Shown: positions 1,429 to 34,660 of the stretch, piece after piece
How the letters are laid out: each line of letters opens with the position of its first letter
How positions within the stretch are numbered: the first letter of the stretch is position 1
DNA from: an uncultured Verrucomicrobiota bacterium
GTDB taxonomy: Bacteria; Verrucomicrobiota; Verrucomicrobiia; Limisphaerales; UBA9464
Assembly: GCA_903916195.1 (NCBI GenBank)
Contig: CAIWVP010000111.1
Coordinates: 2,530-66,529, forward strand
Direction: 5' to 3'
Length of the DNA stretch: 64,000 bases
Made by a program: the position numbers and the translations under genes
Notes under the pieces: model-generated
Told to the model about the DNA's origin: nothing
Databases searched by the model: none
What the model saw: only the letters and a program-made list of their open reading frames with translations

Positions 1429-2460
1429 TCAACGGTCACCGGTCGCCGCCCGGCTCAGCCGCTCCAGGTCTTGGACGCGACGGAACAGGTCCGGAAGGCG
1501 TTCCACGGCGATGAATTGGCGCTTCATCACGCGGTCCGGCTGCGCCGGGGAGCCGAGCCACTTCTGGCCCTCGGGCACGTGGTTCATCACGCCGGATTGC
1601 GCAGCGATGGTGACCTTGTCGCCGATGCGCAGGTGGCCGGCGATGCCGACCTGGCCGGCGATGGTCACGTAGTTTCCGATCTTGGTGCTGCCGGCGATGC
1701 CGACCTGCGCGACCACGATGCAGTGCTCGCCGATGCTCACGTTGTGGGCGATCTGCACGAGGTTGTCGATCTTGGTGCCCTTGCCGATGACGGTCGCGCC
1801 CAGCGCCGCACGGTCGATGGTGACGTTCGCGCCCAGTTCCACGTCGTCGTGCAGGACCACCTGGCCGACCTGGGGGACCTTGCGGTGCGCCCCGGCGTCG
1901 AACACATAGCCGAAGCCGTCGGCGCCCACGACCGTGCCGGCGTGGATCCGGACGCGCTTCCCGAGCGTGGACCGCGTGTAGAGCGTGACCGACGGGAACA
2001 AGCGGCATCCCTCGCCGAGCACGCAGTCGTCGCCCACGAAATCGCGGGCCTGGAGCACGCAATCCGCGCCGATGCGCACGCGTTCGCCCACGACGCAGTG
2101 CGGGCCGATGTGGGCGGTCGGATCGATGTGGGCGGACGCGGCGACCACGGCGGTCGGATGGATGCCCGGCGCGAAGGCCGGCTCGGGGAAGAACAGCGGC
2201 AGCACCTGCGCGAAGCCGATCCGGGCGTTGGCCACGCGGAGCAGCGTCTTGCCGCTGGCCGATTTGAAATCGCCGGCGACCAGCACCGCGGAAGCGGCGC
2301 TCTGGTCGGCCCGGGCGAAGTACGTCTCGTTCTCGGCGAAGGTCAGCTCGCCGGGCTTGGCGGAATCGGCCGGGGCGAACCCGTGCAGCGCGAGCGCCGC
2401 GTCGCCGACGACCTGCGCGCCGAGCTTCTCGGCGATCTGGGCGGTGGTGAAGGTGGGCAT
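1429..2460 (-). CDS. lpxD: UDP-3-O-acylglucosamine N-acyltransferase
   Basis: The N-terminus MPTFTTAQIAEKLGAQVVGD is LpxD-like and is followed by long hexapeptide (left-handed beta-helix) repeats. It lies 4 nt downstream of panD on the same strand. Confidence 0.9.
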   Translation of the reverse strand: MPTFTTAQIAEKLGAQVVGDAALALHGFAPADSAKPGELTFAENETYFARADQSAASAVLVAGDFKSASGKTLLRVANARIGFAQVLPLFFPEPAFAPGIHPTAVVAASAHIDPTAHIGPHCVVGERVRIGADCVLQARDFVGDDCVLGEGCRLFPSVTLYTRSTLGKRVRIHAGTVVGADGFGYVFDAGAHRKVPQVGQVVLHDDVELGANVTIDRAALGATVIGKGTKIDNLVQIAHNVSIGEHCIVVAQVGIAGSTKIGNYVTIAGQVGIAGHLRIGDKVTIAAQSGVMNHVPEGQKWLGSPAQPDRVMKRQFIAVERLPDLFRRVQDLERLSRAATGDR

Positions 2461-2464
2461 GGTG

Positions 2465-2827
2465 TCAGATCCCCCGTTCGTTGAGGACCTCGTTCGCCGT
2501 CCCGAGCACGAGCACCTTGGGCTGCCATCCGGCGGCCTGATGATGCTCGATCTCGGTGAAAGCCATGATGGTGAGCCGGTCGCCCGGTTTGCCGAGGTGG
2601 GCGACGGCGCCGTTGAGCTCGATGGCGCCGGTGCCGCGGGGCCCCTTGATCACGTAGGTCTCCCAACGCGCGCCGTTGGCCATGTTGCTGCACAGGATGC
2701 GTTCGTAGGGCACGAACCCGGCGCGTTCGATCAGGTCCTCGGAGATGGTGAGGCTGCCTTCGTAATCCACGCTGGCCGCGGTGACGGCGGCCCGGTGGAG
2801 CTTCGACTTCAGGACATGGACAAGCAT
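2465..2827 (-). CDS. panD: Aspartate 1-decarboxylase (pyruvoyl-dependent)
   Basis: MLVHVLKSKLHRAAVTAASVDYEGSLTI contains the conserved self-cleavage G-S site. Length is about 120 aa from the internal ATG at 2827. Confidence 0.9.
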   Translation of the reverse strand: MLVHVLKSKLHRAAVTAASVDYEGSLTISEDLIERAGFVPYERILCSNMANGARWETYVIKGPRGTGAIELNGAVAHLGKPGDRLTIMAFTEIEHHQAAGWQPKVLVLGTANEVLNERGI

Positions 2828-2975
2828 GGCGATGGCGTGGAAAAAGCCGTCCTGCGGGCGGGCGCGGCGAAAAATCCGCGGACACGGCCAGCGCCGCGTT
2901 GACCCGAAAAACGTGGCCGGATAATAAGGCAGGCGTCTCCGCGCACAACACAACGTTTCCACGCAACCTGATCCT

Positions 2976-4139
2976 ATGAGCAGAAAAATCCGTTACGGCA
3001 TGGTCGGCGGCGGTCGCGGCGCCTTCATCGGCGCGGTCCACCGCATCGCCGCGAACATCGATGGCCAGATCGAGCTCGTCGCCGGCGCCTTCTCCGCCGA
3101 CCCGGAGAAATCCAAGGCCTCCGGTGCCGACCTCTTCCTCGCGCCCGGACGCGTGTACGGCAGCTATCAGGAGCTTGTCGCCCAGGAGGCCGCGCTGCCC
3201 GCGGACCAGCGGATCGATTTCGTCGCCATCGTCACGCCGAACCACGTCCATTTCCCCGCCGCCAAGGCCGCGCTGGAAGGCGGCTTCCACGTGCTCAGCG
3301 ACAAGCCCGCGACCTTCGACCTGGCCGAGGCCAAGGAGCTCGCCGCCATCGTCAAGAAGTCCGGCCTGCTCTACGGCCTCACCCACAACTACACCGGCTA
3401 CCCGCTCATCAAGGAGGCGCGCGAGCTGGTCCACAGCGGCAAGCTCGGCAAGATCCGCAAGGTCGTGGTCGAGTACCCCCAGGGCTGGTTGGCCACCCGC
3501 ATCGAGGCCAGCGGCCAGAAGCAGGCGGCCTGGCGCACCGACCCGAAACGCAGCGGTGCCGCCGGTTGCATCGGCGACATCGGCACCCATGCCGAGAACC
3601 TCGCCGAGTACGTCACCGGCCTGCAGATCAGCGAGCTGGCCGCGGACATCACCGCCTTCGTGAAGGGCCGCAAGCTCGACGACGACGGCAACGTGCTGCT
3701 CCGTTTCAAGGGCGGCGCCAAGGGTGTCCTCCATGCCTCGCAGATCTCCGTCGGCGAGGAGAACAACCTCAGCCTGCGCGTCTACGGCGAGCTTGGCGGC
3801 CTCGAATGGCACCAGCGCGAACCGAACACGATGCTGGTGAAATGGCCCGACCAGCCGATGCAGGTCTATCGCACCGCCAACGGCTACCTGAGCGCCGCCG
3901 CCAAAGCCGCCGGCCGCACACCGCCCGCCCATCCCGAGGGCTACCTCGAGGCCTTCGCCAATATCTACAAGAACTTCGCCGCCGCCATCCGCGCCCGGAA
4001 TGAAGGCCGTAAACTGGCCAAGGACGATCCCGCGCTCGACTTCCCGAAGATCACCGACGGCGTCCGCGGCATGGCCTTCATCGAGGCCGTGGTGAAGTCC
4101 TCCAAGGCCAATTCCGCTTGGACGAAACTGGAGGCCTGA
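2976..4139 (+). CDS. Gfo/Idh/MocA family NAD(P)-dependent oxidoreductase
   Basis: N-terminal Rossmann motif [13 protein letters not shown]. It also has EKP-like SDKP and the C-terminal alpha/beta domain typical of this family. Confidence 0.85.
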
Positions 4140-4314
4140 ACGGCGTCCCGTGGCCGCGGACGCAAGTCCGCGGCCGGCCCTCGGGGCAACGATCGAGCAG
4201 GGGTCCGTAGGCCGCAGGTCGTTGCTCGCATCTCAACTTCCTCCGTCCAACCCGCTCCTCCCGAGCGAAAATCTCGACGCGCCTGGTCCCGGCGCGTATC
4301 GCAACGCGGTGTCG

Positions 4315-5181
4315 ATGCTCCTGCTGTTGCTCGGCCGGGTGGTCCTGAGCGTCTCGGCCAGCGGGTTGCAGAAGCGGCTCACCCAGCTCCACGTCCCGGG
4401 CCCGGTGGTATGGGCCGGCACGCATGCCTGGATGCTGCCGCTCGCTCTCGTTGCGGTGGTCGCATCGCCCTCCCTCACCTGCGGTCCCGGCTTCTGGCGG
4501 GATGCCGCCCTGGCCGGCGTCATCGATGCCATGGGGAATCTTGCGACCGTCTCCGTGTTGCGGACGACCGATCTGTCGGTCTTCGGTCCGTTGAACGGAT
4601 TCCGGCCGGTCCTGGCGCTCGGGTTCGCGGCGCTCTTCCTCGGTGAACAGGTATCCCCGCTCGGCGGCGCCGGCGTGGCGGTCACCGTGGCCGGCGCGAT
4701 GTTCTTGTTGCGCGACAACCCCGACGGCGATGCCCGATGGACCCCCGCGGTCTGGCGGACGCTCGGGTGGCGGTTGACGGGTCTGTCGCTCTCCGTGCTC
4801 GCCTCGGTCTTCCTCAAGCGGGCGGCGCTCGCTGGACTGGTCTCGCTCACCTTGGCGATGTGGATCGGTTGCGGATTGCCGGTGCTCGCGCTCGCTGCCT
4901 GGCGGGCGCGGAGCGCGTCATCGGCCCGGACGCATGAGCCGCCCGCGGCGGTCGCCCGCGGATTCCTGCCGCTGCACGCGACCCTCTTCTTCGTGATGCT
5001 GTGGGCCTCGGTGGAGATCTTCCGCACCACTTTGCTCGCCTACTCGTTCGCGTTTTTCCAGCTCGGCATGGTCCTGCAGGTGCTGCTCGGCGCGCTGTGG
5101 TTCGGGGAACCGAGGCTCGGCCCGCGTCTGGCCTGTTGCGGTCTGATGGGGATCGGGACGCTCCTGATCACGCTCGGGTAG
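4315..5181 (+). CDS. EamA/DMT-superfamily-like polytopic membrane protein
   Basis: About 10 hydrophobic helices in two similar halves. The start is uncertain: the ORF opens at 4150, and I chose the ATG at 4315 just before the first helix. Confidence 0.55.
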   Translation: MLLLLLGRVVLSVSASGLQKRLTQLHVPGPVVWAGTHAWMLPLALVAVVASPSLTCGPGFWRDAALAGVIDAMGNLATVSVLRTTDLSVFGPLNGFRPVLALGFAALFLGEQVSPLGGAGVAVTVAGAMFLLRDNPDGDARWTPAVWRTLGWRLTGLSLSVLASVFLKRAALAGLVSLTLAMWIGCGLPVLALAAWRARSASSARTHEPPAAVARGFLPLHATLFFVMLWASVEIFRTTLLAYSFAFFQLGMVLQVLLGALWFGEPRLGPRLACCGLMGIGTLLITLG

Positions 5182-5195
5182 CGGGACCGGTGGCT

Positions 5196-5333
5196 GAGGT
5201 AGCGCGGAGTTGAACTCCGCTGTATCGCGGGTTTGCAACCCGCAGGCGCTGCGACGGGTAGGCGGTCGGGACTTGCCGACGCCCTGCCGAGTGCAACTCG
5301 GCGAAACGGCAGGTTTCGAACCTGCGCCACGAG
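5196..5333. repeat. 138-bp nested-palindrome repeat, copy A (four 17-nt hairpins plus terminal inverted GTAGCGC/GCGCCAC)
   Basis: Hairpins are gcggagt-tga-actccgc, gcgggtt-tgc-aacccgc, gccgagt-gca-actcggc and gcaggtt-tcg-aacctgc. It matches the reverse complement of 14641-14778 with 20 mismatches in 138 nt (manual alignment). Confidence 0.8.
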
Positions 5334-5714
5334 CGGCCGCCACATCCGGCCGCACCCTGTTGTGCATGGTTGGACCGTCCATGCGGCGCAACTCCACTTC
5401 TTGCAGCCTCTCCATCCGCCAAGAACATCGCGGAGCGATGTCAGCCATTAGCCGGGAGTCGAGGAGCGGAGCGACGACACCCCCGGATACCGTGGGCCGG
5501 TGCCTGCTGCTTCCAGGTTTGTTTACGGTTTTCGAGGGCGAAGTGTTACCGAATCTGCACAAATAAAGTGAAATTAAGCGGTTGAAAACCTGGAACTATG
5601 GTGTGCCAGTATTGGAATGGTAAAAGAAGAAATAGGATTCGATTAGGTTTTCTTGGGGAAGCACAGCGGATTCGATAAAATTAGACGACCAAAAAACGAG
5701 TATACAACTGTGTT

Positions 5715-8129
5715 ATGAATGAAAAACTGACATTACATATTGCAGAGCGCTACCTCAATGGTGAAAACATAAATCTCGAGTTGTTTGGGCGCGTCGAGTT
5801 ACGTGCGCTCGAGCTTTTGGCGAGTCGAGTCTCGGATTTTTCATTTTTGAAAGAGATTGACGGGCGCCATGCTGAAATTCTTTCAACGGTATGTAATGAA
5901 CTAATTCTGGATGGCTTATCTACTATAGACGATGAATCTGCTCGGATACTGGGAGAAAAGCATCTTGGGAGTCTATCCCTGCGATGTTTGACAGTTTTGT
6001 CAAAACCCGCAGCAAAGAGCCTCTGCCTTCATAAAGGGTTAATCAACGGCATGAAATCTGGGGCATTTGTAACCCAAATGCGGACGAAGCCTGAAATTCA
6101 AGGTAACAAATTCGGTAGTCAACAAAGCCAGCCTGAGGCTTCTCAAAGTGTTGGCAAAATTCGTGCGGAAAACGCTGAAGCCAACGCCGCAGACTCTGCA
6201 TCAGACCCTGTTCCGACTGTGTCTGCCACCAGCTTCCGTGAAGTGGCAAAAGAAAAAAAAGATTCACCAGCCAACACTATTAGATTAATCGTGACTCACC
6301 AGGACGTCATTTTTGAAATATACTCTGCGTACTTAAAACAAAAGACTCCTTGGTGGGATAAGGTCACCACCACAAGCACTTTGCATATCGACAAGGATTG
6401 GCTAGATCGAGGAGGATACGGGGTTTTACAATGCGTTAGGGTTCAAAAACTGATTGAGACACGAGTTTGTGAAACGTGTTGCATCCCGTACAGGAATGAA
6501 GAAGTCCCGGACTCATGCGTACGACTTGATCCGTGGGAAATCGAAGCCTTTCCGGCAGTGGACGCCAAGAAAGGCCCGACGAGCAATAAACTTTCACCCG
6601 TTGACAGCAGGCGAGTACATCCATGTTATGTGTGCGATGCTAGTGGAGAAATCACATGCCGAAGTTGCAATGGACGTTGCGAGGTTACTTGTGGTAATTG
6701 CTCAGGAACAGGCCAAGAACGAAAGACACGTGGAATTCCAGAAATTATTTTATGCGGATCATGCAACGGTTGTGGTTATAAAGATGGTCATGGTAAATGC
6801 TACTCTTGCAATGGCTCAGGGAGAAAGCAACAAACTAGATCCGAAGAATACTTCGTGCCATGTGTGTCATGCCGCAGCACGGGTCTTGTAACATGTTCTA
6901 CGTGTCGGGGAACCGGTAAAGAACAGTGCTACAAATGCGAGGGGCGAGAGAAACTTCTTGAATTTGTTCAATATACACAATCAGTTCAGTCCGTTATTTC
7001 AGAACCTTTGATTGTAGGTTCCGCAACCGCACTCAAACGCCTGCACTGGGGTGCCTTGGAATCTTTTGTTAATTTTGTTAATGTGGCAGATTCTTTTCAG
7101 CAAATCATCAATGATTTGACATCACGTTTTGATGAAGAAGTCTGCCTAAAGAGCGTTGTTTCAATAAACAGATTTTCTGATCCTAACTTTGAAGAATTAA
7201 CTAATGATGAGGAGACCACAACTACATTGGCTCATTTGCATCAGAAGACGACGGCACCCGAGCGGCATGCGACACACGAGTGTAAAGTATTGTCACAAGA
7301 AATGGGTTACTTGTTTCAAGTAACGCAGGGCAAAGAAAAATTGGCAGCTATAGGAACTAAGAACCCAGCGAGAATTCTCACGCTTGGAGGGACTGAGATA
7401 GAAGCAAAACTGGAAAAACAGTCTCGCTTTCTTAGGTTTTTGGTAATGGCTGGCTGTGATAAAATGATAGCAGCAACATCCGCGACTGCTGACGGGCCGA
7501 CACCATGTGGGCCTATAATGAAGTGGTTTAATCCCATTCTGCAGCTATTTAAGCCGCTTTTCGGTATTGTATTCGTGCTCGCGAGCATCGGTCGAAATGA
7601 GGTCGGCGATGCAGTGTTTATCCTAACACTATTAGGATTCTATAACTTCCAAAAATTAGCTGCTATCAAAAAGTGGGGGGTAATATTACCGAATGGATTA
7701 CACATACCTGGGAAGCAAAAGAACAGTAATCCAATCTCTTATTCTAACCGTCGAAGGCACTATGTTTACTTTAAATCTTTTCTTTCCTCTCAAGAAAAGA
7801 ACGCAGTAAACGCCCTTATAGAGATCCTGATTTCCAATCGCCCGGAAGGTCACTGGACCAAAGAGATTCCGAAGGAGAATCACTACTCGCGTTTAACAAA
7901 AATTCCTTTCAGGAACTTCTTTTTTGGAATTGGGGGGGCTCGAAGCATTTTGTATCGGGAATGGGCTCTTGCAGGTCCTTTTTCGAACGCTGAGAAGGCA
8001 AGGCAATGGAGGCCTTGGTCTGCTGTAATGACGGACGATAATCTCGAAAAAGGGTTTAGCAAACTCACCTTTGTGACTAAGAGGCCAGCAGGCGAGCATA
8101 CCTGCACTTATATTCTCACAAGTGTTTAA
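5715..8129 (+). CDS. Orphan 804-aa multidomain protein: leucine-rich-like repeats, eight DnaJ-type CxxC zinc-finger motifs, hydrophobic helical hairpin
   Basis: It is the only long ORF in an AT-rich stretch (35% and 50% GC in the two 60-nt lines I hand-counted). CxxC motifs CYVC, CRSC, CGNC, CGSC, CYSC, CVSC, CSTC and CYKC lie at nt 6624-6944. The N-terminus has about 24-aa repeats (LDGLSTIDDESARILGEKHLGSLSLRCLTVLSKPAAKSL). Hydrophobic segments are FKPLFGIVFVLASIG and AVFILTLLGFYNF. Confidence 0.8.
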   Translation: MNEKLTLHIAERYLNGENINLELFGRVELRALELLASRVSDFSFLKEIDGRHAEILSTVCNELILDGLSTIDDESARILGEKHLGSLSLRCLTVLSKPAAKSLCLHKGLINGMKSGAFVTQMRTKPEIQGNKFGSQQSQPEASQSVGKIRAENAEANAADSASDPVPTVSATSFREVAKEKKDSPANTIRLIVTHQDVIFEIYSAYLKQKTPWWDKVTTTSTLHIDKDWLDRGGYGVLQCVRVQKLIETRVCETCCIPYRNEEVPDSCVRLDPWEIEAFPAVDAKKGPTSNKLSPVDSRRVHPCYVCDASGEITCRSCNGRCEVTCGNCSGTGQERKTRGIPEIILCGSCNGCGYKDGHGKCYSCNGSGRKQQTRSEEYFVPCVSCRSTGLVTCSTCRGTGKEQCYKCEGREKLLEFVQYTQSVQSVISEPLIVGSATALKRLHWGALESFVNFVNVADSFQQIINDLTSRFDEEVCLKSVVSINRFSDPNFEELTNDEETTTTLAHLHQKTTAPERHATHECKVLSQEMGYLFQVTQGKEKLAAIGTKNPARILTLGGTEIEAKLEKQSRFLRFLVMAGCDKMIAATSATADGPTPCGPIMKWFNPILQLFKPLFGIVFVLASIGRNEVGDAVFILTLLGFYNFQKLAAIKKWGVILPNGLHIPGKQKNSNPISYSNRRRHYVYFKSFLSSQEKNAVNALIEILISNRPEGHWTKEIPKENHYSRLTKIPFRNFFFGIGGARSILYREWALAGPFSNAEKARQWRPWSAVMTDDNLEKGFSKLTFVTKRPAGEHTCTYILTSV

Positions 8130-8284
8130 CGAGGTTGTTCCGGGTGGTCCAAGTGAACTGATTGGCGATTTGCCACCGGGTGGTGGCGGTTGTTCGCGAT
8201 TCTGTTTGGCAGACACCCGGTAACACCGTCGTTCATAATTGGACGAGGGTGGTTCACTGCTTCAGCTTTCAAATCACCCGATTG

Positions 8285-8875
8285 ATGGACTGCGACACCA
8301 CAGACCCGGATCTTCTGAAATCGTTGAAGGGCATCGAGAACACGGACGCGTGGGTTCGATTCGAACGCCTTTATCGTCCACCGATTCTCACGCATTGTCG
8401 CGGAGTGGGGTTGACGCTCGATCAGGCGGAGGAGGTGGTCCAGGAGTGTTTCATCCAGTGTTTTCGCTATCTTCCCTCGTTTGAATACTCGGTGGCGGTG
8501 GGACGATTTCGAGCGTGGTTGAATCTCACGGTCAACCAACGGATTGCTGAACACTTCCGAGATTCGGTCCGCTCGGATCGACTAAAAACCGCCTACGCTG
8601 CATTGCTTCGTGATTTAAGCGGGACCTACCCTGGCTCCAATGCAAATCCTTCCATCTTCGAGTACGAGCTGGTTTCGATGGCGTTCCGCAAAACCCAGGC
8701 GGAAGTGGAGCCAAAGGGCTGGCAGGTCTTCGAGGCACACGTGATGCACGGACTCAAATCCAACGAGGTTGCACGGCAGTTTGGAGTGTCCGCTATCCTG
8801 GTTCGGGTGACCACCCATCGTATTCGGAAGATTTTACAACGAAACTGGAAGCTGCTCCAAGAAGGGCCGTTCTGA
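8285..8875 (+). CDS. ECF-type sigma-70 family RNA polymerase sigma factor
   Basis: Region 2-like sequence is FERLYRPPILTHCRGVGLTLDQAEEVVQECFIQCFRYLPSF...FRAWLNLTVNQRIAEHFR. Region 4 HTH is LKSNEVARQFGVSAILVRVTTHRIRKIL. The start was moved to the ATG at 8285, giving about 196 aa. Confidence 0.85.
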   Translation: MDCDTTDPDLLKSLKGIENTDAWVRFERLYRPPILTHCRGVGLTLDQAEEVVQECFIQCFRYLPSFEYSVAVGRFRAWLNLTVNQRIAEHFRDSVRSDRLKTAYAALLRDLSGTYPGSNANPSIFEYELVSMAFRKTQAEVEPKGWQVFEAHVMHGLKSNEVARQFGVSAILVRVTTHRIRKILQRNWKLLQEGPF

Positions 8876-8876
8876 A

Positions 8877-10415
8877 ATGAGCCTGCTCTCCGATTTTCCG
8901 GGCTCTTTGGTCGAGCACGCGGGACACATCGTCAGGGTCCGCAGTTTGTCGAGTCGGCAGAACCGGGAGGTGTATCTGGTTGAAGACTCGCAAGCCCGGA
9001 TGAGGGTCTTCAAGATCCGACGAAACTTGGAGCCTGGAACCATCGCGGCCTTTCTGGATGTTCGGACGCGTATCTCGAAAGGCCCGCCCAACCTGCACTT
9101 GTGCCCGATTTTGGGCTTTGGAAACGATGTTTCGACGGTGTGGGAAGAACTTCAACCCGCAGACGACGCTGAAAATGCGGCTGCCGCCTTCGATGAGTAT
9201 TCCCCGCTGCATCCTCAGCGATGCAATTCCTTGTCAAAGGACCTGTCGTTGGAGTTAGCCGTTGAAGTGGGGTCTGCGGTCTGCGGTGCACTCGTGGAAC
9301 TTGCTGGCTTGGGGCTGACTCACGGCGACGTCAAACGTACGAATGTCCTCCGAGTCAACGGTCGGTGGGTGCTTGGGGATTTCGACACCGTCAGTTCCAG
9401 CTCGGTTGAGAGTCCTCCAACCGCATCCACCGAGGGATACGTACCGCCCGGCGGCGATGACGGTCGCGGACGCGACTGCTACGCCCTCGGCAAGTTGATG
9501 TATGAACTATGGACCGGATGCGATCGGATGGAATATCCAACGATTCCATCCTGGCTGATGAAGTCTCGCTGGAGCCGGGCGGATCGCCTTTTGAACGACA
9601 AGATTTGTCGCCTTTGCTCTCCGTTGGCGACCCAGCGTCTTCGCAGTTTGGAGTCGATCGGCAGAGTCCTGGATGCACTCAAAAACCGAAACAAGGGTGT
9701 CCTGCATCAAGCGGAAAAATTGGTCGGAAGCAGGCGGCCGTGGTGGGTGGTCCCGCTGGCCGTTGCTGGCATGGTGGGGATTACATCCGTTGCTTGGTTG
9801 TATGCCACCGCCACGCGGAAAGAAATGTGGGACGGCCAGCCGGTTGTTTTCTCTCCTTATCGACCCATCAATAGGGTCAACCACGGGTACGGCCGCTGGG
9901 CCGGCAATGGTATCCGTAACGTGTGGATGTTGTTCAACACGCATGCGACGCTTTCCCAACCTCTTCAGCAGGATGAGGTGCTGGAATTCTCATTGAAAAA
10001 GGAGGTTTGGAGGGGGCACATTGGTCTATATCTCACCACAACCCCGTTTTATAAGATACGCGACAAGTGGTTTAGTCACCGTGAGAACTTCGGCGAGATC
10101 GATCACCTGCTGTTTTTCCATGTGGATGGCGATTCGTTGGTGGCACCGACGATCTTTAAGGATGGCAAGGCTGTTGAGTTTCCTTCTTCCAATTGGAGGG
10201 TCGCGTTGACCACCAACACCCTGGCAACCTACACGATCCGACTCAAGGTCATGCCGACTGCGTATGAATGGACCGTATCGGCGGGTGGTGATCCTCTCGC
10301 GGAGGGACACTATCTCAGAGATCCGAACAAACCCGAGTACCTGAACGTGTACGTGTTCGACAACACGGTTTGCTATCTCAGCGACTTGAAGGTGGTCAAG
10401 CAACCCTCTAACTAG
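8877..10415 (+). CDS. Membrane-spanning Hanks-type Ser/Thr protein kinase-like protein with extracytoplasmic beta-rich domain
   Basis: Catalytic loop HGDVKRTNV is at 9321-9344. It also has a DFD in place of DFG (LGDFD), an APE-like GYVPPG and subdomain IX DCYALGKLMYELWTG. I see no glycine-rich loop. One TM helix is WWVVPLAVAGMVGITSVAWLYA, followed by about 190 C-terminal aa. The ATG lies 1 nt after the sigma stop. Confidence 0.8.
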   Translation: MSLLSDFPGSLVEHAGHIVRVRSLSSRQNREVYLVEDSQARMRVFKIRRNLEPGTIAAFLDVRTRISKGPPNLHLCPILGFGNDVSTVWEELQPADDAENAAAAFDEYSPLHPQRCNSLSKDLSLELAVEVGSAVCGALVELAGLGLTHGDVKRTNVLRVNGRWVLGDFDTVSSSSVESPPTASTEGYVPPGGDDGRGRDCYALGKLMYELWTGCDRMEYPTIPSWLMKSRWSRADRLLNDKICRLCSPLATQRLRSLESIGRVLDALKNRNKGVLHQAEKLVGSRRPWWVVPLAVAGMVGITSVAWLYATATRKEMWDGQPVVFSPYRPINRVNHGYGRWAGNGIRNVWMLFNTHATLSQPLQQDEVLEFSLKKEVWRGHIGLYLTTTPFYKIRDKWFSHRENFGEIDHLLFFHVDGDSLVAPTIFKDGKAVEFPSSNWRVALTTNTLATYTIRLKVMPTAYEWTVSAGGDPLAEGHYLRDPNKPEYLNVYVFDNTVCYLSDLKVVKQPSN

Positions 10416-10420
10416 TCAGG

Positions 10421-10451
10421 GTGATGATGGCGGTTTTGAGTCCGTCATCAC
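10421..10451 (+). terminator. Possible stem-loop at the right edge of the low-GC island
   Basis: gtgatgatgg / ccgtcatcac forms a 10-bp stem with 1 mismatch and an 11-nt loop, 6 nt after the kinase stop. No U-tract follows, so it is weak as an intrinsic terminator. Confidence 0.25.
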
Positions 10452-10616
10452 GGCAACGGAATCGGTGGATGGCGGAGACGCGGGATAGGGCACCGGACGG
10501 ATGACAGCGACCTGAGGCCACCCTCGTGCCTGCCTACTGATCCCTACTCGCGAGCGCCGCAAAACGACTCCTGGTGTATCGTCTCCTGGGACGATGGCCG
10601 GACCCGCGGGCCGTGG

Positions 10617-11531
10617 TCACGGGTGGTCGCCGCGGTACTTCAACTCGCCGGCTTCGATCGGGAACGGGAGCCAGTTCTGCCTCGGCGGGACCGGGCAGGT
10701 CGCGAAACCAGTGAAGGCGCAGGGCGGATTGTAGGCGTGGTTGAAATCGATGACGACGCGGCTGTCCGCGCCCGGCAGGGCGACGTGGAGGAAGCGACCG
10801 GCGCCGTAGGTCGTCTCGCCCGCGGTCGCGTCGCGGAAGAGGATGAAGAGGTCGTGAGTCTCCTCGTCGGAGAGCGCTTCGAGGCGATGTTCCTGTCCGC
10901 CGAGCGTGAACACCACCGAACCGGGCGAACGCTCTTGGTTCACCGCGCCGGTGACGTCGTCGATGGCGAGGGTGCGCCCTGGGGCGGAGGCCTCGAAGCG
11001 GCCTTCGATGCGCCAGCGCGGGTCGTGGTCGTAGTAGTCCAATCCGCGGAAGTTCAGCCGGGTCGGCGCCTTCGGATCGCGCACGCGGAGCCCGAGACGT
11101 TCGCCGCGCTGGATCACGGTGATGCTCAGGTCGTCGATGCGGAGGACCGAGGGCTCCGCGTTGCCCGCATCGGACCGGAGCGCGGCCTCCGAGACCTCGG
11201 CGCCGTCGATGGTGGCGACGACGCCGCGGGCCGCCTTGAACCGGGCGAGCATGCCGGTCCGCGTGACGATGCCCGCGACGGGCGGAGCGCTGCCCGGCGG
11301 GAGCGCGATGGGGCTGGCGTCGGCGGTGCCGATGGTGTTCGGGCCTTCGCGCAGCCAATGTAGGCCTGCGAGCGTGGTCCAACCGTTCGTGCCCGCGACG
11401 GAGACGAGCCGGTTGCTCCGCCAAGCGATCCAAGGCGCCGGGCCGATGGGAGCGGGATCGGGCTTGTGCGCGCAGCCGACGACGGCAGCGACCACGGCCA
11501 GGATCAACAAGAGGAAGGGAGCGTTTCGCAT
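10617..11531 (-). CDS. DUF1684 domain-containing lipoprotein
   Basis: Lipobox LLILAVVAAVVGC. The C-terminus DFNHAYNPPCAFTGFATCPVPPRQNWLPFPIEAGELKY is characteristic of DUF1684. Only the 3' 915 nt of the 680-aa track ORF are used. Confidence 0.8.
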   Translation of the reverse strand: MRNAPFLLLILAVVAAVVGCAHKPDPAPIGPAPWIAWRSNRLVSVAGTNGWTTLAGLHWLREGPNTIGTADASPIALPPGSAPPVAGIVTRTGMLARFKAARGVVATIDGAEVSEAALRSDAGNAEPSVLRIDDLSITVIQRGERLGLRVRDPKAPTRLNFRGLDYYDHDPRWRIEGRFEASAPGRTLAIDDVTGAVNQERSPGSVVFTLGGQEHRLEALSDEETHDLFILFRDATAGETTYGAGRFLHVALPGADSRVVIDFNHAYNPPCAFTGFATCPVPPRQNWLPFPIEAGELKYRGDHP

Positions 11532-11671
11532 CGGAGACTTGGATCCACGCCGGGCGACGGAGGACAAGCCCGGCCCGGCGGACGAAACAAAGCCCGCCGA
11601 AGGCCGAGGAGCAAGCGGTCGGTTTGAAAACGGCGGAGTCACGAGCGCGAGCGGCGTGCGACGACCGACGT

Positions 11672-13090
11672 TCACAGCCGTCCCGGTCCACGCGCCCGGG
11701 TGGGCGGGGTGCCGGTGAGCGAATCGCCGAGATCGGCGCGCATCGACTCGGCGAACTTCATCAAACGGGCGACGATGTCCGGATGTGCGGCCGCCACGTC
11801 GGTCTGTTCGCCGATGTCCGAGGCGTGGTCGAAGAGCTGGGGGCGTTCCAGCTTCACCTGATGATACCGCACCGGGATTCCGCCCGTCGCCTTCGGCTGG
11901 TTGCCGAGCGTCCGGTAACCGTGCGAGAGCATCAGTTTCCATCGGCCGTCGGTCACTCCCTGCAGCTCGTTGTTGGCGTAGTACCAAGCGTAGTTCCGCG
12001 GTTTGGAGCGGGCCTTGGACGACTTGCCGGAGATGTCGCGCCAGACGTCGGTGCCGTCGATCTTGACGGCGGGAAGTTGGGCGCCGATGCGGGCGGCGAT
12101 GGTGGGGAAGAGATCGAGGGTCATCATCATCGAGGCGCAATCCGAGCCGGCGTGGATCTTGCCGGGCCAGCGCATGAGGCAGGGCACGCGGGTGCCGCCT
12201 TCCCAGCTGGTGCCTTTGCCCTCGCGCAGCGGACCCGCGCTGCCGGCGTGGTCGCCGTAGCTGAGCCACGGGCCGTTGTCGCTGGTGAAGACCACCCAGG
12301 TGTCCTGGTCGATGCCGGTGCGCCGGAGCGCGTCGAGCACCTGGCCGACCGACCAATCGATCTCCTGCACCACGTCGCCGTAGAGGCCGGCACCGGACCG
12401 GCCGGCGAACTTGGAGCTCACGTGGAGCGGGACGTGCGGCATGTTGTGCGCGAGATAGAAGAAGAACGGGCGGTCCTTGTTCCGCTCGATGAAGGAGACG
12501 GCCCGCTCGGTGTAGCGGGTGGTCAACTGCTCCTGGTCGGCGTGGGTCATCGCCGGTCCCACGATGCGGTCGCCGTCGAACATCGGCAGGTCGGGATACC
12601 CTTTCGGCGATTCCGGATGGAGCGGCCACATGTCGTTGGAGTAGGGCAGGCCGAGCCATTCGTCGAAGCCCTGGGCGGTGGGCAGCCAGCGCTTCGCGTC
12701 ACCGAGATGCCATTTGCCGGCCATGCCGGTGGCGTAGCCCTTCTGCTTCACCAGTTCCGCGAGCGTGGTCTCCGAGGGGTCGAGACCGGTCTTGGATCCG
12801 GGACCGAGCGCGCCGTGGATGCCGACGCGGCTGTGGTAGCAACCGGTGAGCAACGCCGCGCGCGAGGCGGAGCAGACGGCGGAGGAGACGTGGAAGTTGG
12901 TGAAGCGCCGGCCTTCGCGGGCCATGCGGTCGAGGTTCGGCGTGGCGACCTTCGCGCCGAAGGGTCCGATGTCCGCGTAGCCCATGTCGTCGACGAAGAT
13001 GATGATCACGTTCGGCGGTCGGGCCGCGGCGCTCCAAGGAGCGACGAGCGCGACGACCAACAGCGACAAGGCGAGCAGCAGGTTCTTCAT
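11672..13090 (-). CDS. Arylsulfatase A family sulfatase (formylglycine-dependent)
   Basis: Signal peptide MKNLLLALSLLVVALVA. Motifs are FVDDMGYADIG and the CSASRAALLTG formylglycine motif (C-x-A/P-x-R). Confidence 0.9.
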   Translation of the reverse strand: MKNLLLALSLLVVALVAPWSAAARPPNVIIIFVDDMGYADIGPFGAKVATPNLDRMAREGRRFTNFHVSSAVCSASRAALLTGCYHSRVGIHGALGPGSKTGLDPSETTLAELVKQKGYATGMAGKWHLGDAKRWLPTAQGFDEWLGLPYSNDMWPLHPESPKGYPDLPMFDGDRIVGPAMTHADQEQLTTRYTERAVSFIERNKDRPFFFYLAHNMPHVPLHVSSKFAGRSGAGLYGDVVQEIDWSVGQVLDALRRTGIDQDTWVVFTSDNGPWLSYGDHAGSAGPLREGKGTSWEGGTRVPCLMRWPGKIHAGSDCASMMMTLDLFPTIAARIGAQLPAVKIDGTDVWRDISGKSSKARSKPRNYAWYYANNELQGVTDGRWKLMLSHGYRTLGNQPKATGGIPVRYHQVKLERPQLFDHASDIGEQTDVAAAHPDIVARLMKFAESMRADLGDSLTGTPPTRARGPGRL

Positions 13091-13103
13091 CGGAAGGGGA
13101 TGG

Positions 13104-14567
13104 TCAGCGGGCGGGAGTCTGGCGGAAGGCGGGGAGATGGCCGGCGGTGCGGACGAGCAACGTGTCGCCGAGCGGCGCGGGGCTCGCTTGGGCGACCTCG
13201 CCGAGGTCGTTCCGGGCGAGCACCTCGAAGGTGTCGCCGGCCTTGACCACGGTGACCACGCCGCGCTGCGAGGTGACGTAGATGCGTCCGTCGGCGGCGA
13301 CGAGGCTCGCGTAGTGATCACCGACGGCGCCGAGACGTTCTTCCTGGTAGACGGGTTTGCCCGTCAGCGGATCGAGGCAGGTCAGCATGCCGCCGTTCTT
13401 CACCATGTAGAACCGGCCGCGATAATAGAGCGGCGAGCCGACGTACGGCAGGCCCTTCTTGAAGCGCCAGAGGACGCCGGCGTCGGAAAGCTCGCCCTTG
13501 GCATCCGGCTTCACCGCGAAGGCCTGGTTCTCCACGCGGGCGAAGATGTCCGCCATCGATTCCCATTCGGTCCGTTCGATGAAGCCGCTGCGGTTGCCGT
13601 CCATGTGCTTGAAGCGTTGCTTCATCGGACCGGGCGGGAGCTCGTCGTAGCTGAACTTGCCGTCCTTGTCCGCGTCGTGCGCGGCGAGGAATTCGTCGAA
13701 GGGCGGCATGGTGATGTGTTCGGCGGTGTGGTCCCCGCCGGTCGTCCAGCTGGCGGTGAAGAGCATGCCGTCGCCCACCACGGGCGAGGTGCAGGTGATG
13801 CGGGCCAACCCGCTCACGCGCCAACGCTCGGATCCGGTGCGCGGATCGAGCCCCTTGAGCCAGACCGTCCCGGGCACGACCAGGTCGGAGGCGCCGTCGT
13901 GGTCCCAGACGATCGGCGTGCCGAAACCGCGGCGCATCTCCGGCCGCTCGACCCGCCAGGCGACGGCGCCGGTGCGGCGGTCGAGCGCGACGAGGTGCGA
14001 GCCGCCGTCCTGGTCGATGAGCTGGATCACGTTGCCACCGGCCAGCACGGGCGAGGAGCTCGCGCCGTATTCGGTCTGCGTCAGCGCCATCGGCCGTCGC
14101 CAGAGTTCTTTTCCATCGATGTCGTAGGCCAGGACGCCGACCGACCCGAAGTGGACGTAGACCCGTTCTCCGTCGGTGACCGGGGTGGCGGAGGCGGGGT
14201 TGCCGAGGGATTGGTGGACCTCCTCGACCTTCTGCGGGACGACCTCGCGACGCCAGATCTCGCGGCCGGTACCGCGGTCGATCGCGAGCGTGAGCAGTTT
14301 TCCTTCGGCGAAGGCGGTGAGGAAGATGCGTGTGCCCCGGACGATGGGAGAGGAGTTGCCGGCGGGAACTTCGATGCGCCACGCGACATTCGTGGAGGGA
14401 CCGAAGACCACGGGCGGCCGGGCATCGGTCGCTCCGAGACCGAGGCCGCCCGGACCACGGAACTGCGGCCAATCGCCGTTGCCATCGCCGGCCACCGCGA
14501 GCGGGAGCGACGTGAGCGCCAAGCCGGCGAGGAAGATCGCGACGGCGCGGGGAAGGCGGGGGTTCAC
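13104..14567 (-). CDS. PQQ-like beta-propeller repeat protein with two inserted EF-hand calcium-binding loops
   Basis: The WPQFRGPGG start is typical of PQQ-like propeller proteins. EF-hand loops are DADKDGKFSYDEL and MDGNRSGFIERTEW. The start is uncertain: I chose the GTG at 14567 because the upstream ATG lies inside repeat copy B. Confidence 0.7.
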   Translation of the reverse strand: MNPRLPRAVAIFLAGLALTSLPLAVAGDGNGDWPQFRGPGGLGLGATDARPPVVFGPSTNVAWRIEVPAGNSSPIVRGTRIFLTAFAEGKLLTLAIDRGTGREIWRREVVPQKVEEVHQSLGNPASATPVTDGERVYVHFGSVGVLAYDIDGKELWRRPMALTQTEYGASSSPVLAGGNVIQLIDQDGGSHLVALDRRTGAVAWRVERPEMRRGFGTPIVWDHDGASDLVVPGTVWLKGLDPRTGSERWRVSGLARITCTSPVVGDGMLFTASWTTGGDHTAEHITMPPFDEFLAAHDADKDGKFSYDELPPGPMKQRFKHMDGNRSGFIERTEWESMADIFARVENQAFAVKPDAKGELSDAGVLWRFKKGLPYVGSPLYYRGRFYMVKNGGMLTCLDPLTGKPVYQEERLGAVGDHYASLVAADGRIYVTSQRGVVTVVKAGDTFEVLARNDLGEVAQASPAPLGDTLLVRTAGHLPAFRQTPAR

Positions 14568-14640
14568 TGCGTGATGAAGGCATCGCCCGCGGCCCGCGGC
14601 AAGCGGCCAGGCCGGCCCGTGCGATCGGGAGGGGCGGGCA

Positions 14641-14778
14641 CTCGTAGCGCAGGTTTGCAACCTGCTGTATCGCCGAGTTGAACTCGGCAGGGCGTCGGCA
14701 AGGCCCGACCGCTGACCTGCCGCGACGCCTGCGGATTCCAGATCCGCGATACGGCAGAGTTCAACTCTGCGCTACCTC
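14641..14778. repeat. 138-bp nested-palindrome repeat, copy B (inverted relative to copy A)
   Basis: Its reverse complement aligns colinearly with 5196-5333. Base changes in the stems of hairpins 1 and 2 are compensatory. Confidence 0.8.
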
Positions 14779-14906
14779 ATCTGCCGTGTCCGCCTCTTCC
14801 GATCACATCCGCGCCCAGGCCGGCCCGTGCGATGGGGAGCGGCGGCACGGGGGGCGGCGGACGCTCCGCGCTTCTCGGCGGGGCCCGGATCCGGCAGCTT
14901 CGGCGC

Positions 14907-16046
14907 ATGAAGCCGTTCCTCCTCGTTCCCCTTCTGCTCGTGTCGGTCGCGATGCCGTCGATCCACGCGGCGGAGGCTCCGGGCTACACCGTGCCTGTGG
15001 TCGATCTCGCGGCGGAGACCGGACGTCAGGGGGTCGTCGACCGTGAGCCGGGACGATACCTCGGGCATCCCACGACGGTGCTGCTCGAGGACGGCAAGAC
15101 CCTTCTCTGCGTCTATCCGCGCGGTCACGGCAAGGGCGCGATCCAGCTCAAGCGCAGCACGGACGCCGGCCTGACCTGGAGCCCGCGGTTGCCCGTGCCG
15201 GAGAACTGGGCCACCTCGCTTGAGACGCCGACGATCCATCGGGTGGTGGACGCCACCGGCAAGAAGCGGCTCATCGTGTGGTCCGGGATGTATCCGGCGA
15301 GGCTGGCGATCTCGGAGGACGACGGCGCGACCTGGTCGCCGCTGAAGCCCGCCGGGGATTGGGGCGGGATCGTTGTGATGGGCAGCGTCGAAGCGGTGCG
15401 CGGCAAGCCGGGGTCCTATCTCGCGTGGTTCCACGACGACGGCCGGTACATCGCTGCCGATGCGAAGCCGGAGAAGCCGGTCGTGTTCCGGCTCTATCAG
15501 GTCGGATCGACCGACGGTGGGCTGACCTGGGGCCGGCCGCGCGAGCTGTTCGCGTCGGCGGACGTCCATCTCTGCGAGCCCGGTGTCGTCCGTTCGCCCG
15601 ATGGCCGGCAGATCGCCCTGTTGTTGCGGGAGAATTCCCGGCGGAAGAATTCCCACGTCATCTTCTCCGACGACGAGGGCGCGACCTGGACCGCTCCGCG
15701 CGAACTGCCCGGCGCGCTCACCGGCGACCGCCACGTCGCGAAGTATTCGCCGGACGGCCGCCTGTTCATCTCGTTCCGCGACACCACGCGGGTCTCGAAG
15801 ACGCAGGGCGACTGGGTCGGCTGGGTCGGGCGGTACGAGGACATCGTCGCCGGCCGCGAAGGCGCCTATCGCGTGCGCCTGATGGACAACCATCACGCGT
15901 GGGATTGCGCGTATCCCGGAGTGGAGCTGCTGCGCGACGGCACCTTCGTGACGACGACCTACGGGCATTGGACGGAAGGCGAGCCGCCCTATGTGGTGAG
16001 CGTCCGGTTCCGGTTGTCCGAGCTGGATGCGAAGCTCGGCAAGTGA
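14907..16046 (+). CDS. BNR/Asp-box repeat glycosidase (exo-alpha-sialidase-like)
   Basis: Signal peptide MKPFLLVPLLLVSVAMPSIHA. Four Asp-boxes are present: STDAGLTW, SEDDGATW, STDGGLTW and SDDEGATW. Confidence 0.75.
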   Translation: MKPFLLVPLLLVSVAMPSIHAAEAPGYTVPVVDLAAETGRQGVVDREPGRYLGHPTTVLLEDGKTLLCVYPRGHGKGAIQLKRSTDAGLTWSPRLPVPENWATSLETPTIHRVVDATGKKRLIVWSGMYPARLAISEDDGATWSPLKPAGDWGGIVVMGSVEAVRGKPGSYLAWFHDDGRYIAADAKPEKPVVFRLYQVGSTDGGLTWGRPRELFASADVHLCEPGVVRSPDGRQIALLLRENSRRKNSHVIFSDDEGATWTAPRELPGALTGDRHVAKYSPDGRLFISFRDTTRVSKTQGDWVGWVGRYEDIVAGREGAYRVRLMDNHHAWDCAYPGVELLRDGTFVTTTYGHWTEGEPPYVVSVRFRLSELDAKLGK

Positions 16047-16088
16047 TCGAGGCTTCCCGTCCGCGGCCTCCGGCGACATCCTTCGGCG

Positions 16089-17858: not shown

Positions 17859-17863
17859 CTGTC

Positions 17864-18107
17864 GGAGCGCGGGCGGCCCGCCCGCAAGCCGCGTTCCCGC
17901 CATCTCGCGGTGACGATCGGTCGCTGGCAGCCCGGAGTGGTGGGCGGGTTGCCCTGCAACCCGCTCGGAGGACTGGAAAGTCCGCGTCTCCCGGCCTCGG
18001 TTTCCGGGGGGGGGGGACCGCCCGCACCGCATGACGGCGTCCGGGACCATAGGAAGGCTCCGGCACCCGCATCGATGCGGGCCGCGCGGGCGGGCCGCCC
18101 GCGCTCC
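17864..18107. repeat. MITE-like element bounded by perfect 22-bp inverted repeats, containing a G11 tract
   Basis: ggagcgcgggcggcccgcccgc (17864-17885) is the exact reverse complement of 18086-18107. Inside are the hairpin gcgggttgc-cct-gcaacccgc and 11 consecutive G at 18006-18016. Confidence 0.6.
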
Positions 18108-33999: not shown

Positions 34000-34660
34000 T
34001 CAGGGCAGCTGCGCCGAGAGCCGTCCCAGATCTTTTCGGAGCCCGCTCCCGAGGCGATGCCGCGCGAGGTCGACCTGCATCCGGCCTACCCCGAGGGCCT
34101 CGGCGACCTTGGCGACCTTGGCGACCGGCCAATCTTGCAGGACGTGGAGAACGAACATCTGGAACTGCTTGGGCTTCACGCGGTGCTTCAGCCGCTCGAT
34201 CGCGCTGGCCCGGAGGTGGCTTTGTCATTCCTTTTCCCAGAGGCCGGCCAGCTCGCGGTCCTGGGCATCGGACAGGCCGGCGGTCTTTGCCTCGACCGCC
34301 GGGTCGTCGGGGTCGGCCCGGTGGCCTTCGCCGTCGCGGTACCGCTTCCGCAGCGCATCGGCGATCCGTCGCTTGGTGATCTGGAGCAGCCAGCCCTTAG
34401 ACGTGCCCTGCGTCCGGTCGTGGCGGAAACCGGGCATCCGCTTGGTCACGGTGATGATCGGTCTCCTCCACGACGTGCAGGGCCGACGCTTCGTCGAGGC
34501 CCGCCTTCGACGCCGTGTCGCAGATGAGCCGTCAGCAGGTCTCGAAGAACTCGCACCCGCTGTCCTGAGCATCCCACGACCGGAGCCGGGAGAGCAGGCT
34601 CTGGCGGGTCGGGAGGAGATCTTCGTCGCCGCGGGATCCGGTGTGCATCTCTCCTTTCAT
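34000..34660 (-). pseudogene. ECF sigma-70 family factor, disrupted by two in-frame TGA codons and one +1 frameshift
   Basis: The conceptual product is MKGEMHTGSRGDEDLLPTRQSLLSRLRSWDAQDSGCEFFETC*RLICDTASKAGLDEASALHVVEET/IITVTKRMPGFRHDRTQGTSKGWLLQITKRRIADALRKR...LAGLWEKE*QSHLRASAIERLKHRVKPKQFQMFVLHVLQDWPVAKVAKVAEALGV... The stops are at 34532-34534 and 34225-34227, and there is an extra G near 34459. Confidence 0.7.

Follow-up and report, generated by a model that had tools for sequence, protein, structure and literature searches.

Extracytoplasmic function (ECF) sigma factors that are encoded beside serine/threonine (Ser/Thr) kinases are activated by direct phosphorylation, as described for EcfP/PknT and EcfK/PknS (PMC13147305, PMC8999054, PMC7826278). 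In ECF43 the acidic DAED/DxxD motif of sigma region 2.2 is lost in favor of an uncharged QTTA/STTA with a phospho-threonine (PMC13147305, PMC8999054), whereas in the kinase-associated groups other than ECF43 acidic residues are kept in region 2.2 and a conserved Ser/Thr lies nearby (PMC8999054). Here we describe a locus with such a pair in a 64,000-nt stretch of contig CAIWVP010000111.1 from an uncultured Verrucomicrobiota bacterium (this whole stretch is the window), in which an island of low guanine-plus-cytosine (GC) content at 5496-10440 carries genes for a zinc-finger (ZnF) membrane protein, an ECF-type sigma factor and a Ser/Thr kinase-like protein. The nearest described counterparts of the pair are ECF43 (EcfP-PknT of Vibrio parahaemolyticus and EcfK-PknS of Xanthomonas citri) and the other kinase-associated groups, namely the Planctomycetes groups ECF59, ECF61, ECF62 and ECF217, and ECF267 and ECF283.

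To our knowledge only two ECF/Ser-Thr-kinase pairs have been characterized, both of them ECF43 and neither from Verrucomicrobiota, and we know of no description of a conserved leader and strain-variable cargo slot for such pairs. Comparison of related loci firmly supports an anatomy and history in which a conserved frame, formed by a non-coding leader and the sigma/kinase genes, holds an exchangeable and compositionally foreign slot. The fuller reading, which appears reasonably likely, is that this is a horizontally spread composite island of lake-water Verrucomicrobiota whose replaceable cargo is expressed from the leader. The sigma/kinase core is of a known kind; the conserved leader, the exchangeable slot and the near-orphan ZnF gene are new.

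The island and its variable slot

The island is the sole low-GC stretch of the window, and no other 1-kb segment falls below 0.62. In the sliding profile the flanks lie at 0.65-0.72 and GC drops between 5401 and 5800 to 0.42-0.49, where it stays until about 8100; across 8100-10400 it forms another plateau, at 0.52-0.59, and 0.66-0.69 is regained by 10401-11000, past the kinase stop. Measured against all 1-kb segments outside the island (mean 0.685, standard deviation 0.016, minimum 0.645), 5505-8189 (GC 0.447) has z = -15 and 8190-10415 (GC 0.553) has z = -8, and GC at third codon positions is 0.41 in the ZnF gene, 0.64-0.67 in the sigma and kinase genes and 0.89-0.90 in the flanking host genes. 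The island holds three co-oriented open reading frames (ORFs), at 5715-8129 (804 aa), 8285-8875 (196 aa) and 8877-10415 (512 aa). Neither a tRNA gene nor a resolvase homologue was found in the window, and the island is without a recombinase; the window provides no integrase or recombinase, tRNA target or flanking direct repeats of a classical integrative element, and the only candidates for direct or inverted repeats at the island ends are short pairs at chance level. A preliminary description of this DNA had pictured a low-GC, compositionally foreign segment of three co-oriented genes without integrase or tRNA marks, and this much is borne out.

Related loci were drawn from lake metagenome-assembled genomes (MAGs; as given in their record titles) and a lake-water metagenome, from which the host was judged to belong to a freshwater lineage of Verrucomicrobiota. 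One of them, L004, is an independent 17.5-kb contig with the order Asp decarboxylase, GFO/IDH/MocA oxidoreductase, EamA, island, DUF1684, sulfatase, PQQ protein, BNR protein and GDSL lipase, and it is colinear with window 1440-5190 and 8190-17950 at 94.6-98% nucleotide identity. Window 5505-8189 is swapped in L004 and L005 for genes encoding a 292-aa lipoprotein and a 216-aa TM2-domain protein, with GC of 0.43-0.49. With its deviant composition and the presence/absence polymorphism of the ZnF segment, which is missing from L004 and L005, the element shares two traits with classical genomic islands. The two GC steps reflect different histories, since the sigma/kinase half is shared at the locus and the ZnF half is strain-specific. 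The two-step profile that had been noted before is thus real, although its interpretation as a single, partly ameliorated mosaic acquisition does not stand, the segment at ~5608-8131 being a strain-specific replacement; similarly, the comparison with close relatives that had been proposed finds the sigma/kinase pair retained at the same locus in L004, but not the ZnF gene, so that the island as a whole is not fixed.

Every close locus that is informative, namely the window, L004, L005, L009 and L088, reads leader, then variable low-GC cargo, then sigma and kinase. The cargo is the ZnF gene in the window, the lipoprotein and TM2 protein genes in L004 and L005, and a gene for a 639-aa secreted protein with LamG repeats in L088; in L009 there are two cargo units, each with a leader copy in front, the first encoding a 686-aa LamG-repeat protein and the second four small membrane proteins or lipoproteins. 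All cargo genes have the same orientation and all encode envelope or membrane proteins. For L006, L008 and L087 the contig breaks off 164-343 bp before the sigma gene, which is what a strain-variable slot would lead one to expect.

The left part of the frame is a conserved non-coding leader of ~115 nt (5496-5611, + strand), a candidate promoter/operator or possibly a recombination site, and all five loci that reach far enough upstream (the window, L004, L005, L009 and L088) carry it. Its nhmmer E-value is 3e-33 for the window and between 1e-29 and 1e-36 for L004, L005, L009 (twice) and L088; nhmmer and motif searches found no further copy among 89 loci or in the rest of the window, and its pattern has no match in viral contigs or in metagenome contigs of the Joint Genome Institute (JGI). 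Identity to the window copy is 80-87%, and the two L009 copies are 96% identical to each other; even in L088, where the kinase is just 61% identical, the leader reaches 84-87% and is conserved to the same degree as the sigma gene. Three conserved heptamers spaced 16 nt apart lie within it. RNAalifold on four leaders gave no convincing structure (consensus -16.6 kcal/mol over 220 columns, with a covariation term of -1.06). The distance from the end of the leader to the cargo ATG in L088 is ~11-35 nt according to the method used, a promoter-like position, and in L004 and the first L009 unit similarity runs from the leader through a shared 5' untranslated region (UTR) into the signal peptide. In the window, likeness to the other leaders stops at 5612, where a cargo-specific 5' UTR of the ZnF gene begins (5612-5714, + strand). 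The interval from leader to ZnF ATG holds no terminator-like site, and a scan for sigma-70 promoters and terminators gave counts no higher than in shuffled sequence.

The junction between host and island, judged against L004, is at ~5496-5505. Further upstream the leaders of L004 and L009 share another ~170 nt that is missing in the window, and in L004 and L005 an extra high-GC segment of ~1 kb (L004 4693-5690), with a 158-aa minus-strand ORF, lies between the flank and this extended leader; the window has no such segment.

To the right of the slot the frame resumes with a conserved region upstream of the sigma gene (8131-8284, + strand), as defined by alignments and the blastn junction. The ZnF segment is placed precisely between the two conserved frame pieces, at ~5608-8131 as judged from the alignments, because at its right junction 8133-8190, directly past the ZnF stop, matches the tail of the L088 cargo region and similarity to L004 resumes at 8190. 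The right end of the module is at 10416-10440 (+ strand), where a six-locus alignment shows that similarity among copies at different loci stops.

Adjacency of the sigma and kinase genes is conserved in about 12 Verrucomicrobiota loci (L004, L005, L006, L008, L009, L011, L013-L016, L087, L088 and L089), the kinase identities spanning 38-92%. In the close clade, with kinases at least 77% identical, the pair has a GC of 0.50-0.55 in hosts with flanks of 0.60-0.69, occupies at least three chromosomal contexts, and loses similarity ~25 bp past the kinase stop; on these three grounds the module is judged to have spread horizontally. In distant pairs the GC is like that of the host. Upstream of the pairs at 56-96% identity lie unrelated genes, and no Pfam-recognizable conserved partner was found among the neighbors of the far-clade loci L013, L014 and L016.

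Products of the pair and of the slot

The sigma gene (8285-8875, + strand) encodes a 196-aa protein with sigma2 at ~8372-8566 and sigma4 at ~8723-8833. Its start was set at the ATG at 8285, which is conserved in all homologues, the mechanical ORF beginning at 8162. The protein scores 50.5 bits against TIGR02937 (sigma70-ECF; cut-off 42.9) and 29.6 bits against Sigma70_r2 (cut-off 24), with Sigma70_r4_2 at 21 bits, below the cut-off of 25.7; with sigma2 and sigma4 as its only domains in 196 aa it is a group 4 ECF sigma factor. The scores against the subfamilies that NCBIfam defines for the Planctomycetes-Verrucomicrobia-Chlamydiae (PVC) superphylum are 37 bits for TIGR02989 (cut-off 124.55) and 19.8 bits for TIGR02984 (cut-off 183.75). 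In an alignment of 10 orthologues the region 2.2 motif, Q47-A-E-E50 here, is QSEE, QADE or QVDE, with Q47 and E50 invariant and no Thr in the motif; T/S44 is conserved just upstream. No anti-sigma domain was found in the neighbors of the pair, and searches of metagenome contigs with sigma peptide patterns yielded no relatives. We note also that an N-terminal M-x-C-(D/E)-T-T-D motif is invariant, as are Cys3, Cys38 and Cys55, with Cys59 nearly so; these residues may form a metal or redox site, or the threonines may be phospho-acceptors. A second ECF-like sigma gene is present in the window at 34030-34458 (- strand), its product being 25% identical to the island sigma over 145 aa.

The sigma stop codon (TGA, 8873-8875) lies 1 nt before the ATG at 8877 of the third gene (8877-10415, + strand), which encodes a 512-aa transmembrane (TM) Hanks-type Ser/Thr kinase-like protein. 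The kinase domain spans 8925-9725 and is followed by a TM segment at 9744-9800 (aa 290-308) and a predicted extracytoplasmic beta-sandwich domain at 9813-10400. An alignment of 20 full-length homologues shows K46, H149-G-D151, K153, N156 and D168-F-D170 to be invariant, and an AlphaFold2 (AF2) model built from it (predicted local distance difference test, pLDDT, 80) has the bilobal kinase fold and matches Pim1, Aurora-A, PknI and Stk1 in Foldseek with probability 1.0 and E of about 3e-10. The C-terminal domain of ~200 aa is all-beta and has no Pfam or PDB-sequence match, and a profile comparison found no relation between it and the LamG cargo. The public gene call for the contig gives only a 196-aa product, which covers no more than the 196 codons at the end of the kinase ORF; at 8877-9824 the kinase is evidently under-annotated in the source, because the 512-aa ORF is conserved at full length in the 20 homologues. 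For the pair, then, the preliminary description was right to propose an ECF-type sigma factor, a transmembrane kinase and a pairing of established type, whereas its likening of the pair to ECF43 is not supported by the QAEE of region 2.2, which is not the uncharged QTTA/STTA.

The kinase alleles at this locus are two to three times more diverged than the surrounding chromosome. Between window 8877-10412 and L004 8215-9750 the kinase is 90% identical in nucleotides and 88% in amino acids, as against 96-98% nucleotide identity for the sigma gene and the flanks, and its TM/linker segment has just 59% amino acid identity; codons differ at 135 of 512 positions in the kinase (60 of them non-synonymous), at 22 of 196 in sigma and at 17-35 per ~300-390 in the flanking genes. 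This is consistent with either exchange of island alleles or faster evolution. In a distant Verrucomicrobiota MAG (GCA_964409245.1, L007/L012 5285-11545) there are four tandem paralogues of the kinase family, of 514-533 aa; tblastn finds no sigma gene in the 5.3 kb upstream, and the contig ends ~130 bp past the fourth kinase.

The ZnF gene (5715-8129, + strand), placed by its translation and the family alignment, has the lowest GC in the island (0.446). Its 804-aa product consists of a 186-aa N-terminal extension (5715-6272), a family core that starts at 6273, and a C-terminal domain that runs to 8126. Eight CxxC motifs, mostly CxxCxGxG, lie at aa 304-408 (6624-6944), and in a profile search residues 304-410 align to the cysteine-rich (CR) domains of DnaJ and Ydj1 (1exk and 1nlt; E = 5e-5 and 4.5e-4), the PF00684 profile giving at most a faint, sub-threshold match. 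A J domain with its HPD motif has no Pfam or NCBIfam match in the protein, and beyond the zinc-finger array no family of Pfam, NCBIfam, PHROGs or PADLOC is matched. There is one clear hydrophobic segment, at aa 608-626; a second TM arm at about aa 636-652, which would complete a hairpin at ~7536-7670, is probable from helix 629-654 of a low-confidence model and from reading of the sequence, although it falls below the hydrophobicity threshold. An AF2 model of the whole protein from a 6-sequence alignment (pLDDT 33) was unusable and was set aside.

Full-length relatives are scarce, numbering 5 in 5.8 billion clustered proteins and 4 clusters in 1.84 billion representatives. The N-terminal 186 aa are missing from all of them except a 97% identical copy, and a 190-aa N-terminal query found no homologues; the extension is nonetheless a genuine ORF, the probability of meeting no stop in 186 codons being 2e-5. 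The part that combines an IETR..PY..W..FP motif with the CxxC array (aa 245-430, 6447-7004) is by contrast widespread, occurring in at least 275 clusters at E <= 1e-10. Its carriers, P0027-P0172 among them, are membrane proteins with formylglycine-generating enzyme (FGE)-sulfatase, PEGA, TPR or AAA domains, and Pfam has no family for it. A widespread N-terminal module of IETR-PY-W and eight CxxC motifs, present in hundreds of bacterial membrane proteins, is thereby defined. Searches of phage and plasmid collections with the ZnF core returned matches to the zinc-finger array only.

The genomic settings of the relatives place the ZnF gene, with firm support from these comparisons, as drawn from a recombinase-associated mobile pool. 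P0002 and P0003, 58-61% identical to the ZnF protein, are encoded on contigs L001 and L002 in low-GC islets of 0.39-0.50 within DNA of 0.57-0.66. A small serine recombinase gene converges on each from downstream, and in L002 tRNA-Leu and tRNA-Ile genes lie upstream of the islet; no sigma or kinase gene is found within 0.6-1.5 kb downstream of either ZnF gene, where the resolvase is present instead. The tRNA-Ile gene of L002 (562-638) has the anticodon TAT and adjoins tRNA-Leu(CAA). The 97% identical copy, P0001 from a sister sample, has a resolvase gene 283 bp upstream and, spaced as in the window, a sigma start 156 bp downstream; it is the only linkage of ZnF and sigma genes outside the window. 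P0004 (39% identical) has no called gene after it on its short contig and P0005 (27%) is on a short contig that ends inside the ZnF gene; neither has a sigma or kinase gene upstream. L088 and L002 originate from one JGI sample, and therefore the frame and the ZnF family coexist in one community. Of the earlier claims about the 804-aa protein, the DnaJ-type CxxCxGxG array and the almost orphan full-length family are confirmed, whereas a conserved three-gene architecture is not, the cargo being different in L004 and the sole other linkage being that near-identical copy; nor does a third signaling partner fit with ~60% identical homologues that stand beside a serine recombinase without sigma or kinase.

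Expression and exchange of the cargo

On the composite-island reading the outer domain of the kinase would sense an envelope or periplasmic cue and the kinase would phosphorylate the sigma factor, which would direct RNA polymerase to a promoter in the leader, leading to expression on cue of whichever cargo occupies the slot. The ZnF protein would be an output of the pair, not a third signaling partner, its gene having taken the place of an earlier cargo in this genome. By analogy with the described pairs, sigma-controlled transcription of the cargo from the leader is probable, and a role for the leader as a sigma-dependent promoter/operator is favored because of its position, its duplication before cargo units, the continuity with the 5' UTR, the lack of a conserved RNA fold and the envelope nature of the cargo.

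Several points weigh against this reading. The leader-bearing loci available number only five and between them carry four distinct cargo sets; no ECF -35/-10 pair is recognizable in the leader, and by eye no motif recurs in both the leader and the sigma-upstream region. A recombination site, in place of or in addition to a promoter, is a further possibility for the leader. Kinase activity, although plausible from the conserved residues, is only assumed, because the Gly-rich loop (GxGxxG) and the conserved alpha-C Glu are missing and the Pfam Pkinase score of 15.9 bits is below the threshold of 31.7. The charge-restoration mechanism of ECF43 is not simply transferable, because this sigma factor keeps two acidic residues (QAEE). 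Finally, the route of cargo exchange lacks marks, with neither a recombinase nor terminal repeats in the window.

It is rather unlikely that the leader is instead a site-specific recombination site at which a small serine recombinase encoded elsewhere exchanges cargo, regulation by sigma being incidental. Such a role would account for a leader that is placed exactly at the content boundary and is duplicated between the two L009 cargo units, for its three regularly spaced heptamers, and for the resolvase genes that flank ZnF genes in three independent contigs; in P0001 the resolvase start would be ~80 bp from where the leader would begin. However, there is no matching site at the right junction, which moreover differs between comparisons (8131 with L088, 8190 with L004), the leader is not found in the ZnF/resolvase contigs L001 and L002, neither a recombinase (in the window, L004, L009 or L088) nor a structured attC-like element is seen, and the passage from leader to shared 5' UTR to signal peptide in L004 and the first L009 unit has the look of a transcription unit. 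A further alternative makes the ZnF gene a selfish or neutral chance passenger, functionally unrelated to the pair and dependent on its own signals if expressed; this would agree with its GC, the lowest in the island, its orphan family with mobile-element neighbors elsewhere, and the 100 nt of its own upstream sequence that is unlike that of other cargos. We consider this unlikely because four independent cargo sets share the exact slot and orientation, which random insertion would not lead one to expect; the replacement, besides, left the leader and the sigma-upstream region unaltered up to a few nucleotides from the ZnF stop.

A fixed three-component module for envelope sensing or defense, with the ZnF protein as obligate third partner, is largely refuted by synteny and we give it little credence. 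The genes are co-oriented and tightly packed with terminator-like sites not above chance, the 97% copy also has its sigma start 156 bp downstream, and many membrane proteins whose outer domains look like sensors carry the N-terminal module of the ZnF protein; but the 58-61% identical homologues have a resolvase in place of sigma and kinase, the short contigs of P0004 and P0005 show neither gene, pairs at 56-96% identity are preceded by other genes, and a strain with 96-98% identical flanks (L004) has no ZnF gene at the locus. An anti-phage or anti-predator module, in which the kinase detects envelope attack, sigma switches on a membrane-active cargo such as the TM2 proteins or the ZnF hairpin protein, and cargo turnover reflects an arms race, is very improbable. 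Low-GC strain-variable cargo beside a conserved sensor does resemble defense hot spots, an ECF43/kinase pair controls a predation-resistance type VI secretion system in Xanthomonas (PMC13147305), and phage families of unknown function include TM2 proteins. The kinase domain has weak matches to the PADLOC families PD-T4-6, mad6 and MkoA (E = 1e-5 to 4e-3), but these cover the generic catalytic core only (PD-T4-6, 23 bits) and PADLOC 2.0 is blank for the cargo proteins and sigma; phage and plasmid collections hold no homologues beyond the zinc-finger array, and secreted LamG-repeat proteins and lipoproteins are not typical abortive-infection effectors. An assembly chimera that joins DNA of a low-GC organism to a high-GC Verrucomicrobiota genome is scarcely credible: the source is a metagenome assembly and contigs of relatives often break upstream of sigma, but the sigma/kinase part meets host DNA at the same two junctions in the independent assemblies L004, L005 and L087, and the ZnF-sigma junction recurs with identical 156-bp spacing in a second sample, so that a chimera is excluded at these junctions. 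The leader, the 8133-8190 remnant and the sigma-upstream region, moreover, make up one unbroken frame that is evolutionarily coherent.

More tentatively, the composite-island reading can be extended to one in which the leader and the pair act as a portable, plug-and-play regulatory dock, wiring foreign envelope genes at once into a circuit of sensor, sigma and promoter, with the ZnF gene as one output from a recombinase-borne pool. If this were true, what is transferred and selected as a unit would be a circuit from signal to output whose output can be interchanged. The locus is in any case a natural experiment, with the same sensor and regulator and four outputs in near-identical genetic backgrounds. 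The leader is a short, highly conserved candidate for the target promoter of sigma; if sigma does act there, direct tests would become possible for its regulon, its promoter motif and its dependence on phosphorylation, and newly acquired genes would be seen to be wired into an existing circuit at acquisition.

Flanking elements and comparison with described systems

Outside the island, in a host intergenic region, is a hairpin-rich, REP/MITE-like (repetitive extragenic palindromic/miniature inverted-repeat transposable element) repeat of 139 nt at 5195-5333 (no strand assigned), with an RNA fold of -87.5 kcal/mol (z = -3.5). It had been described as a 138-bp palindromic repeat that abuts the island border; the hairpin-rich element is confirmed but the contact is not, as it lies ~165 bp to the left. 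It is a dispersed repeat with the look of a mobile element, not an island terminus, because an inverted second copy lies at 14641-14779 (blastn-short, 85.6% over 139 nt). L004 differs from the window in the intergenic regions that correspond to both copies, and has no counterpart of the 5195-5333 copy at that place. A search of 4000-12000 with Rfam gave nothing beyond a sub-threshold match to the Acido-Lenti-1 RNA in the conserved host flank (5426-5486, - strand; 22.3 bits against a gathering score of 37, E = 0.11), of which an inverted partial copy appears, by eye, to be present in L004 ~100 bp further on (~L004 4760-4815). Among the neighboring genes, L004 has an inserted HicA toxin/HicB (UPF0150) antitoxin pair at 1049-1593, with none at the corresponding window position (2470-2530).

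In its array of eight CxxC motifs, mostly CxxCxGxG and alignable to DnaJ and Ydj1, the ZnF protein is like the CR domain of DnaJ/Hsp40 (PF00684). It differs in having neither a J domain nor the DnaJ C-terminal domains, in an array twice as long, and in carrying this array within a membrane protein with an N-terminal module of its own. Its relatives P0002 and P0003, as low-GC islets with a resolvase, are like the islands of serine recombinases (PF00239) near tRNA genes, whereas the ZnF gene of the window has no recombinase or tRNA and lies inside the sigma/kinase frame.

The locus as a whole recalls hot-spot islands and integron arrays in that unrelated low-GC genes are swapped among near-identical strains at one position, in the same orientation, within a conserved frame, and in that a repeated boundary element stands before each unit (twice in L009). 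Unlike these it has no integrase or recombinase, no structured attC-like sites and no known defense genes, and its frame is a dedicated sensor/regulator pair and not a set of housekeeping genes.

The closest resemblance in the core is to the ECF/kinase pairs. As in these, a small ECF sigma gene lies directly beside, and here is translationally coupled to, that of a single-pass Hanks-fold kinase, there is no recognizable anti-sigma factor, and the host belongs to the PVC superphylum. With acidic residues in region 2.2 and the conserved T/S44 the sigma factor is like the groups other than ECF43; from ECF43 itself it differs by QAEE with no Thr in the motif, though a co-encoded kinase and no recognizable anti-sigma factor are common to both. 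The kinase departs from those of the described pairs in lacking the Gly-rich loop and in a C-terminal sensor domain that matches nothing described, and the pair is set apart from all of them by its link with a leader that is conserved and a cargo slot that varies among strains.

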